A stretch of 64,000 nucleotides of DNA from NCBI GenBank assembly GCA_046075485.1, contig JBJTQF010000024.1:2197-66196 (forward strand). The letters run 5' to 3'. Every line of letters starts with the position of its first letter. Position 1 is the first letter of the stretch. Below the pieces are notes generated by a model, which worked only from the letters and a program-made list of their open reading frames with translations, had not been told where the DNA came from and did not search any database. Made by a program: the position numbers and the translations under genes. This document shows positions 4,851 through 12,763 of this stretch, in pieces. The DNA comes from Myxococcota bacterium (GTDB taxonomy: Bacteria; Myxococcota_A; UBA796; JAJRTE01; JBJTQF01).

Positions 4851-7609
<2,759 letters not shown>

Positions 7610-7673
7610 GCGCTTCTCCTTGGCTATGCGAAGGTTCAGCTCAGCGGAGGTCCGGCTGTATTGGCAGCGCCCC

Positions 7674-8846
7674 CTAATTCTGAACCTCTGGACTCTCCGA
7701 AGTAGACTCATCCTCTGCCTTATAATGGAGAGGTGAGCTGGGGATGGATCGGGAAGGTATATGTGTCACGTTCGGCAACCTATCCGCAATCTTGAGGAAA
7801 GCCTCCCAGATGCGCGGATCAAAGTGTGTACCGGCATCAAGCTGGAGTCGCTCAACGGCGTGGTGATGATCCATGGAGGGCTGATAAGGGCGGGCATGGG
7901 TCAGCGCGTCATAATTGTCGGCAAGGCTCATCAGCCGTGCTCCCAAAGGGATCTCCAGGCCAGCACGTCCGCGAGGATAACCCAACCCGTCCCAGCGTTC
8001 GTGATGGCTCGCTGCGATGTCGCGTGCGATGTATAACAGAGGACTGGGTTGCTCGAGCTCTGCAATGGCCCGCTCAATGGCTTGGGCTCCCAGCTCGCAG
8101 TGACGCTCCAAGAGCTGATGTTCTTCGTGGGTGAGGGGGCCACGCTTGGACACGATCTGGGCCGGGACCGCCACCATGCCGATGTCGTGCATGCCCGAAG
8201 CGAGGGTGAGCTCCTGCACATGGTCACGGAGGTGTGCGTCGGCAGGCCAGGGATTTTCAAAATAGCTGCGGGCGAGCATCTCCAGGAGGTTTGCACTGCG
8301 TGTTAGGTGTAAATAGCTGTCTGGATGCTGGATCTCGATCAAGCTCATGAGGGCTCGGAGGGTGACACGTTCGACCTGTTGCTCAAGGGACAATCGACGG
8401 GCGCTCTCGCTGGCCATTCGTGTACAATATTCCTGCACCAGCCGACGAAGACGCTCTTGCTCGAGATGCAGCTGAACTCGGTTCAGGAGCATGGCGGGAC
8501 GCACGGGCTTGGTGATATAGTCCACCGCACCGACGGCCAGACCTTTTTCTTCTTCTTCAGGTGAGTTCAGGGCGCTCACAAAAATGACGGGAATCTTCTG
8601 GGTGAGAGGATCACGCTGAAGGGCACCCAGCACGGCATAACCATCCATGTCGGGCATCATGATGTCGAGTAAGATCAGATCTGGAACGGGCGGGGAAAGG
8701 GCCACCTTCAGGGCGCGTGGGCCAGAATTCGCCACCCGAACGCGATAAAACTGTTTGAGCTGTGCCCCCAGAATGATCACATTCTCGGGAGTGTCATCCA
8801 CAAGTAGTATCGTCTGACGTGTGTCCTGTACGGAGGTCATCTCCAT
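7674..8846 (-). CDS. Response regulator with a C-terminal HD-GYP phosphodiesterase domain (RpfG-like)
   Basis: The receiver motifs ILLVDDTPEN...LILLDIMMPDMDG...KP are present. The HD-GYP signature is HDIGMVAVP...HHERWDGLGYPRG. The start could be 8858, 8846 or 8840; the chosen ATG has a GGGAG sequence just upstream. Confidence 0.8.
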   Translation of the reverse strand: MEMTSVQDTRQTILLVDDTPENVIILGAQLKQFYRVRVANSGPRALKVALSPPVPDLILLDIMMPDMDGYAVLGALQRDPLTQKIPVIFVSALNSPEEEEKGLAVGAVDYITKPVRPAMLLNRVQLHLEQERLRRLVQEYCTRMASESARRLSLEQQVERVTLRALMSLIEIQHPDSYLHLTRSANLLEMLARSYFENPWPADAHLRDHVQELTLASGMHDIGMVAVPAQIVSKRGPLTHEEHQLLERHCELGAQAIERAIAELEQPSPLLYIARDIAASHHERWDGLGYPRGRAGLEIPLGARLMSLADNYDALTHARPYQPSMDHHHAVERLQLDAGTHFDPRIWEAFLKIADRLPNVTHIPSRSIPSSPLHYKAEDESTSESPEVQN

Positions 8847-10531: not shown

Positions 10532-11539
10532 TCAGTTGGGTACGCAGATCCACGGGGTCTTGGCCGAGTAATAAGAACCAAAGGTGGCACACATCTCGTT
10601 GGGGAAGGTGAGGGCGCGGTCAGTGTCGTTATACCAACCGCAGGTGGTGATAAAACGGTCTCCCTTCTGCACCACAAAGTCGTCTTCTTCGTAGTATTTA
10701 CCATATCGATTGACGATGGGCCGATCACGATACTCCGCCAGCCACTCATCCACGGCATAAATGCGCTCACTCTCCGTCGCACCAGCGGGAATATAGTCAA
10801 GATAGAAGTATTTGCCCCACTCGTGGAGGTGACCTCCCAAATAGAGGATACGGGTGGGAAGCTCGTCGTTCCACTCACACTCCACCTTGACTTCGTAGTT
10901 GGAGGTGGCAGGAATAGAAAAATCGACCGAGACGAATGACAGAGGTGCCACCCATTCTTTGACGGTGTCCATCGGGATCAGCTCCAAGTTCACAACGTCG
11001 CGAACGAGGGTCGGTTTGGAGCGGGTGTTGATGTAGTGAGCCTGTACAAAGATACGAGTTCCCGAGTTCAGCTTGGTGGCCATCTCTGCGTTAGGATACT
11101 CTAAGAAGTAAGTATCCTCCCCATAACTTCCCTCAATGTTTTCGCCCCCCACATAGATGGGCTCGGCATCTGCCATCGCATTGGCGGCGGTGCAGTCAAA
11201 GACGGTGCCATCAGGATACTGTTCTTGGCTAAGCGCAGTGCCCAGCAAGATCACATGATGACCCCCTTCAGATTGATAGTGTTTTGCCTTATTGATTGCA
11301 ACATCAGGGCCGGTATAGGTGGTGACGTAACAGAACTGCTTATCTTCTCCAGCAGGAATGATAAGGTCTGGTGTGTAAAATTGAATACCACCCTCGGGAA
11401 TGGCAGGCAGGGGCATTCTCAGATCGATCACTTCGGGGGCAGGTGTTGCCGTCTCGGTGGGCGTGGGGGACTCTTCGGTGTCATCCGAGCCGCAGGCCAC
11501 CAGGCCCAAGGTTAAAATTCCAACAGCGTACTTCTTCAC
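10532..11539 (-). CDS. Lipoprotein with a PHM/DBH-like type II copper monooxygenase fold. All six Cu-ligand motifs are conserved.
   Basis: The GTG start at 11539 follows a GGAGG RBS. The lipobox is LGLVAC-GSDD. Motifs matched to peptidylglycine alpha-hydroxylating monooxygenase are: GGHHVILLG vs HHMLLFGC (CuH His-His); FVQAHYI vs LQVHYG (third CuH His); GGHLHEWGK vs HTHHLGK (CuM HxH); NEMCATFGSYY vs DEMCNLYIMYY (CuM Met); and an early FCY Cys similar to PHM's FCM. Confidence 0.65.
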   Translation of the reverse strand: MKKYAVGILTLGLVACGSDDTEESPTPTETATPAPEVIDLRMPLPAIPEGGIQFYTPDLIIPAGEDKQFCYVTTYTGPDVAINKAKHYQSEGGHHVILLGTALSQEQYPDGTVFDCTAANAMADAEPIYVGGENIEGSYGEDTYFLEYPNAEMATKLNSGTRIFVQAHYINTRSKPTLVRDVVNLELIPMDTVKEWVAPLSFVSVDFSIPATSNYEVKVECEWNDELPTRILYLGGHLHEWGKYFYLDYIPAGATESERIYAVDEWLAEYRDRPIVNRYGKYYEEDDFVVQKGDRFITTCGWYNDTDRALTFPNEMCATFGSYYSAKTPWICVPN

Positions 11540-11697
11540 AAGACCTCCATGCAGGTTTAGGTTCGGGCTCTCAACGTTCAGACCGCTAAATTCAGGTGTT
11601 CAGGTCAACATTCTGATGATGCCAAGACGTGGAGCATGTCGTGGGCACTGTTGCGCCATGACATGACAGGCTCTCTCACTTCACAGACTGCATAACA

Positions 11698-12273
11698 TTA
11701 CTGTCCCGATGGGAAGAGCATGTCAAAGTAGACCACAATCTCGACAGTCTCATTGGCTTTTACGGTAAAGGCATTCCCGCTGGGGACGGTGACAGGATCT
11801 TTTCCATCCGGTCCAGGTGCAGAGAGATCCGCGTTTCCATCGGAGTCTACAAACCCCAACACATACACCACGCCGGTGGGAAGAATGTCTGTGGTCAAGA
11901 GGACTTCGGTCACACCATCGTTGGGAAGAAATGTCACATTTTCTACGTAGACATCAGCCAACATGACCGAATCATCCCCGGGGCCGGTATCACCCACCGT
12001 ACCACCATAGACCGCACCCCAGAACGGTCCTGCGGGTGTCTCACCTCGGTCGTTGAGATAGTCATACCAATCTTCTTGGAGCTTAAATCGAAGGGCCAAC
12101 CGTCCTTCTCCTGCCACCGGTTGAGGGGTGGGTGTTGCAGCGGGTGTGGCGGTTGCGGCTTCAGGTGTTGGGGTTGATTCACCCTCAGGTGTTGGGCTCT
12201 CCGTGTCCCCGGACCCACCACTACAGGCCACAAAACTCAGAAGACCGATCACACTCCATTTGCGCCAGCTCAT
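11698..12273 (-). CDS. Lipoprotein of unknown function, translationally coupled between the cytochrome-like and Cu-monooxygenase-like genes
   Basis: The ATG at 12273 (MSWRKWSVIGLLSFVAC-SGG lipobox) follows a GAGGAGAG RBS. That RBS overlaps the stop codon of the upstream gene at 12284-12286. The product has a Thr/Pro-rich linker and then a beta-rich domain. Confidence 0.5.
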   Translation of the reverse strand: MSWRKWSVIGLLSFVACSGGSGDTESPTPEGESTPTPEAATATPAATPTPQPVAGEGRLALRFKLQEDWYDYLNDRGETPAGPFWGAVYGGTVGDTGPGDDSVMLADVYVENVTFLPNDGVTEVLLTTDILPTGVVYVLGFVDSDGNADLSAPGPDGKDPVTVPSGNAFTVKANETVEIVVYFDMLFPSGQ

Positions 12274-12283
12274 ACGTCTCTCC

Positions 12284-12763
12284 TCAATTGTTGGGGGCTC
12301 CAGCGTCAATCCAATCGATCACTGCTTGGAGGTACTCCGGCTCGATCTCTCCATCTGGCGGCATCTTGTCACCCACAATCCCTTCTGCATCCGTCAGCTT
12401 CTGAACCAAATAGCTGCTGGTCGCATCTCCCGGCTTGACCAGCATGAGCTCTGTGCGCTGCACGCTGGCGACGTTCACAATGCGGGTATACAGATCGGCT
12501 TCAGAAAAATCCAACCCCGTACTGGCACTCGAGCCCGCATGACAGCCGCTGAAATCACACGAGAGGGTCAACACTTTCTGCTCAACAAATTGGAAGGTCG
12601 GAGGTGTCTCCTCCGGTGTTGGACTGCTGCTGTCGTCTTCCGAGGTGTCACAGGCACTCAGACTCAACGTCGAGAGCAACATCCATGACACTAATTTGAG
12701 CTTCCCCTGTGCTGACCCTGATTGTCCTGACATTGACTGTGCTGACATTGACTGTGCTGACAT
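12284..12763 (-). CDS. Lipoprotein with a PSCyt1-type (planctomycete cytochrome c) domain carrying a CX4CH heme-binding variant. The functional start is probably an internal codon near 12682-12700.
   Basis: The sequence ..LTLSCDFSGCHAGSSASTGLDFSEADLYTRIVNVASVQRTELMLVKPGDATSSYLVQKLTDAEGIVGDKMPPDG fits the PSCyt1 profile (C..CH...GL.L......pG.p..S.L......MP). The signal/lipobox is LLSTLSLSAC-DTS. The first 20 codons (MSAQSMSAQSMSGQS) are encoded by the 15-bp tandem repeat. Confidence 0.5.
   Translation of the reverse strand: MSAQSMSAQSMSGQSGSAQGKLKLVSWMLLSTLSLSACDTSEDDSSSPTPEETPPTFQFVEQKVLTLSCDFSGCHAGSSASTGLDFSEADLYTRIVNVASVQRTELMLVKPGDATSSYLVQKLTDAEGIVGDKMPPDGEIEPEYLQAVIDWIDAGAPNN

Follow-up and report, generated by a model that had tools for sequence, protein, structure and literature searches.

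A putative PHM/DBH-type copper monooxygenase is genetically linked to a cytochrome-c-like lipoprotein in uncultured Myxococcota

PHM (peptidylglycine alpha-hydroxylating monooxygenase) and DBH are textbook eukaryotic enzymes of neuropeptide amidation and noradrenaline synthesis that use ascorbate as their reductant, a compound that is not expected in the bacterial periplasm. What could a protein with the copper-ligand motifs of these enzymes be doing in a bacterial cell envelope, and from where would it draw its electrons? This question is raised by a locus in a 64,000-nucleotide stretch of DNA from a Myxococcota bacterium (assembly GCA_046075485.1, contig JBJTQF010000024.1, positions 2,197 to 66,196; hereafter the window) in which three lipoprotein genes, here called g1, g2 and g3 in the order of transcription, lie next to each other on the minus strand. 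We consider it rather likely that this trio forms an envelope-anchored redox module with g3 as the copper monooxygenase, g1 as a cytochrome donating electrons to the copper site known as CuH, and g2 as an accessory protein. The locus is composed as follows (aa, amino acids; nt, nucleotides; RBS, ribosome-binding site):

12284-12763, minus strand: g1, 159 aa, a putative PSCyt1/cytochrome-c-like lipoprotein with lipobox LSAC
12274-12286, minus strand: g1-g2 junction, with the TGA stop of g1 inside the GAGGAG RBS of g2 (read from the sequence)
11698-12273, minus strand: g2, a 191-aa lipoprotein with lipobox FVAC and of no known family, most likely starting at the ATG at 12273
11540-11697, minus strand: g2-g3 spacer of 158 nt, with a GGAGG RBS just ahead of the GTG of g3
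10532-11539, minus strand: g3, a 335-aa lipoprotein with GTG start, lipobox LVAC and a predicted two-domain PHM/DBH fold

The original prediction, made by a model from the letters of the DNA, had described three minus-strand lipoprotein genes at this site, and all three open reading frames are present, each encoding a signal peptide that ends in a lipobox cysteine as is typical of bacterial lipoproteins. This cysteine is invariant or nearly so in alignments of 23 g3 sequences and of 13 g1 homologues, and a lipobox-like motif occurs in 125 of 155 full-length g3 representatives. The products of g2 (over all 191 aa) and g3 are identical to NCBI MFM7199464.1 and MFM7199463.1, respectively, both of which are named “hypothetical protein” in public records. 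Bacterial PHM/DBH-like proteins had been described as essentially uncharacterised in the original prediction, and no description of prokaryotic members was found in the literature that we searched, including a 2025 review of the enzyme class.

The four copper-ligand motifs that had been recognised in g3 (GGHHVILLG, QAHYI, GGHLHEWGK and NEMCATFGSYY) are all there. As judged by alignment, the putative ligands of the CuH site are H94, H95 and H168, while those of the second site, CuM, are H237, H239 and M316; when the g3 family profile is compared to sequences in the PDB, the former align with H107, H108 and H172 of PHM and the latter with its H242, H244 and M314. All six belong to the 22 invariant columns of an alignment of 23 g3 sequences with identities down to 28%. 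Across a larger set of 248 distinct g3 relatives, H95 and H168 are kept in all 248, and H94, H237, H239 and M316 in 247 each. Because the ligands are invariant in the smaller set and retained to this degree in the larger one, the occurrence of the full motif set in g3 is, by sequence comparison, far beyond chance. The conservation extends to C300, E315 and C317, which are kept in all 248 members, and to three disulfide pairs. Q166, the equivalent of PHM Gln170 on the proposed path from CuH to CuM (PMC12164859), is found in 216 of the 248.

When all PDB sequences were searched with the g3 family profile, the sole matches were PHM, which is matched along its two domains (E 5e-10), and DBH (E 5e-7); the four ligand motifs GHH, QaHY, HlHewG and EMC all fall in register. 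A structure prediction, which had been suggested as a check on the assignment, points the same way: An AlphaFold2 model of g3 (pLDDT 86.8, pTM 0.80) was used as a query for Foldseek, and the top 31 matches are without exception PHM or DBH (E 7e-14 to 2e-10), such that g3, as modelled, has the two-domain beta-sandwich fold of PHM. The family itself is large. An exhaustive search with a hidden Markov model (HMM) finds 516 clusters at 50% identity when the limit is E<=1e-30, a number that rises to 2,717 with E<=1e-10 and to 6,481 with E<=1e-3, and the best 150 members are mostly stand-alone proteins of about 300-335 aa.

Would such a protein act on the substrates of PHM? In the latter, the C-terminal carboxylate of the substrate is salt-bridged to Arg240 with secondary contacts from Tyr318 and Asn316 (PMC12164859). 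None of the three residues is found in g3, and in the 248 family members the columns of R240, N316 and Y318 are occupied by G/L/F, V/A/T and F/V/L, respectively. As far as alignments can tell, the redox machinery is therefore conserved in this family but the substrate pocket of PHM is not. It is true that PHM provides the closest solved structure and that g3 is extracytoplasmic, which could speak for g3 being a genuine peptidylglycine alpha-hydroxylase of bacteria that shares the chemistry and the substrate class of animal PHM and amidates peptides or lipoproteins of the envelope. However, with the anchor residues never conserved, an identity to PHM of only 16-18%, and no PAL-like lyase or precursor-peptide gene recurring nearby in the 80 loci described below, we regard this assignment as very improbable.

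Other comparisons likewise set g3 apart from its eukaryotic relatives. Unlike PHM, which is the catalytic core of PAM (PDB 1PHM, 1OPM, 1SDW) and uses soluble ascorbate regenerated by cytochrome b561, g3 is a bacterial lipoprotein without a PAL partner; its genetic partners are instead a cytochrome-c-like protein and, in addition, g2. DBH, tyramine beta-monooxygenase and MOXD1 (PDB 4ZEL) differ from g3 in that it has neither a DOMON domain nor a dimerisation domain. No DOMON match was obtained for g1, g2 or g3, and the mature N-terminus of g3 leads straight into the catalytic core. What corresponds to an N-terminal module here is c-type-cytochrome-like and usually encoded by a separate gene, and the N-terminal accessory domain of DBH resembles this partnership in logic and not by homology.

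Which proteins, then, belong to g3? To answer this, we turned to a genome scan that yielded 80 g3 loci, one per GTDB species, all of them from metagenome-assembled genomes and none from a cultured isolate. Explicit Myxococcota lineages account for 36 of these loci and “Deltaproteobacteria” for another 9, while the remainder carry generic or apparently wrong labels. Among loci L014-L093, the labels Klebsiella pneumoniae, Enterobacteriaceae, Enterobacterales and Rickettsiales look wrong, with loci that resemble those of Myxococcota. All open reading frames of the 80 loci were searched with HMMs, and genes within 1.5 kb of g3 were counted as linked. Both g1 and g2 are linked to g3 in 51 loci (44 without truncation by a contig end), only g2 in 13, only g1 in 8, and neither of them in another 8. 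The synteny of the trio that had been anticipated for relatives is thus found in most of these species-level genomes, and g2, which had been given no role in the original prediction, proves to be linked to g3 as tightly as g1.

The trio is not kept in one inherited order. We found 14 arrangements, the commonest being 2-3-1 (25 loci), followed by 3-2-1, 1-3-2 and 1r-3-2 with 7 loci each, and the order 1-2-3 of the window is rare. That the three genes have stayed together despite so many rearrangements speaks for selection acting on their association and not for an inherited gene order, and we reject chance adjacency on the grounds of these shuffled orders together with gene fusions in several lineages. 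Two of the loci, L067 and L086, encode g1-g3 fusions in which a single N-terminal lipobox precedes the CX4CH domain of g1, and this in turn the PHM-like domain, uninterrupted by a stop or a second signal peptide. Further g1-g3 fusions were found among the family representatives (P0068, P0145 and P0162), and the five fall into two clades, L067/P0068 and L086/P0145/P0162, that share at most 33% identity with each other and one of which has itself diverged to about 40%. Fusions of g3 to g2 also exist (P0114 and P0143), and divergent g2-like tails are carried by P0131 and P0134. In all of these fusions, g1 takes the N-terminal position beside the CuH subdomain and g2 the C-terminal one beside the CuM subdomain.

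Several PHM-like proteins, including cytochrome fusions of the second of these clades, additionally carry a cysteine-rich C-terminal tail of about 80 aa with the pattern CT.GG.EC...C...FC...C..D.DCG..A.C...C.P..C. It is present in the open reading frame at 5311-7104 of L086 (residues ~510-597) as well as in P0145, P0121, P0057 and P0172. A different situation is seen in L008 (1620-3960, 8101-8816), a distant member with 30% identity in which two PHM-like paralogues stand in tandem and both g1 and g2 are absent; about 4 kb downstream lies a gene for a RoxA-like dihaem cytochrome c, which may be an alternative electron partner.

For g2, linkage and fusion to g3 are the whole of the evidence that bears on its role. 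Its invariant residues are G82, G97, L139, D143, P160 and T162, and there is no conserved histidine, cysteine, methionine or metal ligand among them. No Pfam family, no relative among PDB sequences and nothing meaningful in NCBIfam was found for this protein, and a word-indexed search recovered 4 homologues. Judging from these searches, g2 defines a new protein family.

The assignment of g1 as a PSCyt1-type protein with a CX4CH variant of the haem attachment site is supported by several lines of comparison. The motif is present as CDFSGCH (C69-DFSG-C74-H75), followed distally by M134-P135, and CX4CH is a recognised attachment motif of haem c (PMC11492766). In 13 g1 homologues with identities down to 29%, the lipobox cysteine, C69, C74, H75, M134-P135 and a C-terminal W..GA are invariant. 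The fetched loci supplied 72 homologues, of which 68 show CX4CH, 4 show CX5CH and 71 keep the MP pair. In P0145, a relative that is fused, the same register is occupied by a canonical CVSCH and RMP is retained, so that spacings of 2, 4 and 5 residues occur between the cysteines of this one site. Haem attachment sites vary in this way, which is not what one would expect from a chelating loop whose geometry is fixed. The PSCyt1 model (PF07635) is matched by 7 of the 13 homologues at E<=1 (best E 1.3e-4). The best PDB matches of the g1 profile are all c-type cytochromes. One of them, the haem domain in hydrazine synthase alpha, has its CAM--CH aligned on CafsgCH of g1 (E 0.015), and the others include FoxE as well as cytochromes c6 and c-552.

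The overall sequence pattern of g1, C..CH ... PG.p..S.L..k ... MP ... WI..GA, is also that of its best, if weak, sequence matches, namely PSCyt1 (the “Planctomycete cytochrome C” domain) and the haem c domains in FoxE (5MAB) and hydrazine synthase alpha (5C2V). The differences are that the cysteines of g1 are separated by two (rarely three) additional residues and that g1 forms a stand-alone lipoprotein of about 110 aa. M134-P135 of g1 aligns with the MP of the PSCyt1-type domains, and M134 would accordingly be placed to serve as an axial ligand. To our knowledge, haem binding by PSCyt1 domains has so far only been predicted. From this pattern we infer that g1 is a putative monohaem c-type electron carrier.

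CX4CH lipoproteins similar to g1 also occur in other lineages, where they have different neighbours. In a Gemmatimonadota locus (L010, 3760-7628), the g1-like gene adjoins the gene of a TonB-dependent receptor and that of a beta-barrel-like protein (375 aa) in which a CSACH motif occurs. A Calditrichaeota locus (L012, 4734-7220) has it next to genes for DUF5777 and Por_Secre_tail proteins, both of which also contain a g1-like domain. In L013 (4108-6387), its neighbours are ExbB/ExbD and a gene resembling g2, while PHM-like genes are absent over 6 kb, and L011 (6001-7497) has tandem paralogues of the g1-like lipoprotein. The g1-like domain seems to be a reusable module of the envelope.

The checks on HMM matches, fold, synteny and the cytochrome-like character of g1 came out in favour of the original prediction. 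Several results nevertheless weigh against reading the trio as a monooxygenase with its own cytochrome. With regard to g3, the check that had been proposed was a search with the HMMs of the copper type II monooxygenases, in which the protein of the window by itself falls just short: Its score for Cu2_monoox_C (PF03712) is 21.5 bits against a cut-off of 23, which is 1.5 bits short, and the N-domain model PF01082 matches neither this protein nor any of 23 relatives. At the level of the family, the check speaks for the claim, since 19 of these 23 relatives match PF03712 at E<=1 (best E 4.4e-8) and the family profile finds only PHM and DBH. By these scores, g3 belongs to a divergent subfamily that is missed by current Pfam models. 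With regard to the association, g1 is missing nearby in 21 of the 80 loci and g2 in 16, and a more distant g3 subclade often has g3 alone. When neighbouring genes were clustered in search of substrate, transporter or precursor genes, no other gene recurred beyond 9 of the 80 loci, and the leading clusters, nuo genes and RNase HII, reflect the synteny of the lineage.

With regard to g1, all HMM matches to cytochromes stay below the curated cut-offs: The score of the window protein for PSCyt1 is 15.5 bits against a cut-off of 22, and the best PDB match of the g1 profile, to FoxE, is weak (E 1e-3). The AlphaFold2 model, built with 12 sequences, has a pLDDT of 48.9, which is so low that the case for a cytochrome fold is made by sequence. 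Furthermore, a canonical CXXCH is found in none of the 72 homologues from the fetched loci and in no stand-alone g1, and the Cys2-His-Met set could also bind copper. These same findings favour an alternative in which g1 is a copper-binding metallochaperone on a cytochrome c scaffold that uses Cys69, Cys74, His75 and Met134 to load or repair the copper sites of g3. The invariant residues would make a plausible ligand set for Cu(I), and a periplasmic two-copper enzyme does need a supply of copper. However, cysteine spacings that differ at one site and include CVSCH are awkward for a fixed chelating loop, and the sole detectable sequence relatives of g1 are haem c domains with CH and MP in register. 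Moreover, neither g1 nor its relatives have a Sco, PCuAC or CopZ-type match in Pfam or NCBIfam, and it would be unusual for a chaperone to be stably fused to its client in two deep clades. All in all, we consider a chaperone unlikely.

How would the three proteins work together if g1 is indeed a cytochrome? We propose that g3 acts at the periplasmic face of the envelope as a PHM/DBH-type monooxygenase with two non-coupled copper sites, of which CuH (His3) would accept electrons while CuM (His2Met) would activate O2 and hydroxylate a C-H bond. As a dedicated His/Met monohaem c-type cytochrome with an unusual CX4CH attachment site, g1 would pass two single electrons to CuH and thereby replace ascorbate and tie g3 to the periplasmic electron pool. 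The third protein, g2, would be a non-redox accessory on the CuM or C-terminal side and probably serve in substrate presentation or as a scaffold, and the substrate of g3 would be something other than a glycine-extended peptide.

There is precedent for haem donors to copper oxygenases, since the cytochrome domain of cellobiose dehydrogenase donates to lytic polysaccharide monooxygenases (LPMOs), and cytochrome domains of Cellvibrio Cbp2D/E are likewise donors to mononuclear copper enzymes of this kind. The logic is shared with g1 and g3 in that an extracytoplasmic cytochrome feeds single electrons in place of a small-molecule reductant. However, LPMO systems differ from the trio in their unrelated histidine-brace fold as opposed to the two-copper fold of PHM, in the type of haem or haem domain, and in their polysaccharide substrates.

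Linkage and fusion indicate that g1 and g3 act jointly or exchange electrons, but they do not give the direction. It is thus conceivable that g3 is an oxidase or dehydrogenase that sends electrons from its substrate to the cytochrome and the respiratory chain, or that it reduces O2, peroxide or superoxide without any hydroxylation. That no substrate-related gene is linked and that the residues of the PHM substrate pocket are not conserved would fit such a role. On the other side of the argument, the complete set of His3 and His2Met ligands is as strictly conserved as in the monooxygenases, the same is true of the Gln bridge and of the architecture with two domains, and it is established that characterised members of this fold with these ligands are all O2-activating hydroxylases (PMC12164859). 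We therefore judge reversed or non-hydroxylating electron flow to be quite unlikely and infer that electrons would run from g1 to g3.

Taken further, the cytochrome-fed monooxygenase that we prefer would be the first prokaryotic system of the PHM/DBH type: an ascorbate-independent monooxygenase of the envelope that is connected by its own CX4CH cytochrome to the respiratory or periplasmic electron pool, needs a third subunit of a new family, and acts on a substrate other than peptidylglycine, such as a lipid or sterol of the envelope, a glycan or a compound from the environment. We would put the chances of this full scenario at about even. The enzyme type itself is known, and what is new here is the three-part architecture with a protein as electron donor in an uncultured lineage.

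Why would such a system matter? How electrons are delivered to CuH and how they cross the ~11 Å between CuH and CuM is still debated (PMC12164859). The g3 proteins make up a large sister family in bacteria, and they come with a putative one-electron protein donor that is genetically dedicated to them and in some cases covalently fused. If our reading is true, this family would allow electron transfer in such enzymes to be studied in a tractable system that is free of ascorbate, and the g1-g3 fusions would be natural single-chain wires from haem to CuH to CuM that are suited to both of the debated questions. It would also offer a clue to the origin of the eukaryotic enzymes and their N-terminal redox-accessory domains, place the CX4CH branch of PSCyt1, an uncharacterised domain, in a first functional context, and add a new O2-dependent C-H hydroxylation to the envelope of widespread uncultured aquatic Myxococcota.

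At the level of the window itself, the gene organisation is consistent with joint expression of g1 and g2. The TGA stop of g1 falls within TGAGGAGAGACGTATG and overlaps the RBS of g2, 10 nt ahead of the g2 ATG, exactly as had been read before, which implies translational coupling of these two genes. The tight coupling that had been claimed for the whole trio holds for this junction but not for that of g2 and g3, which are separated by a gap of 158 nt, with g3 having its own RBS. This gap is unusually long, given that about 10-25 nt separate the genes in most other genomes. Except for the RBS, the spacer is not conserved in L001, a relative with 82% identity, and we thus see no candidate for a regulatory RNA there. 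A scan of the region for promoters and terminators gave only chance-level results and no terminator-like site within the spacer, and an internal promoter at this place is possible.

The start codon of g1 is ambiguous. Its 5' end (12719-12763, minus strand) consists of three copies of a 15-nt tandem repeat, ATGTCAGCACAGTCA, ATGTCAGCACAGTCA and ATGTCAGGACAATCA, which create three in-frame ATGs and an N-terminus reading MSAQS-MSAQS-MSGQS. The exact 159-aa product of g1 is missing from the protein collection that contains the products of g2 and g3, and the public annotation therefore uses another start of g1. Variation in the number of repeats could shift the start codon.

The immediate neighbours of the trio in the window, namely genes for an AmpG-like MFS transporter, an RR-HD-GYP protein, a PAS kinase, an aminotransferase and a radical SAM protein, were considered as parts of the system and rejected, being common to the window and L001 only. 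A hybrid PAS sensor kinase/response regulator at 4851-7711 on the minus strand is spread over three overlapping open reading frames in the window (7055-7711, 5767-7341 and 4851-5819), with its HisKA and HATPase_c domains truncated at the break, whereas it is a single gene of 1065 aa in L001. To judge from the sequence, this split indicates frameshifts, which would mean either a pseudogene or an assembly error.

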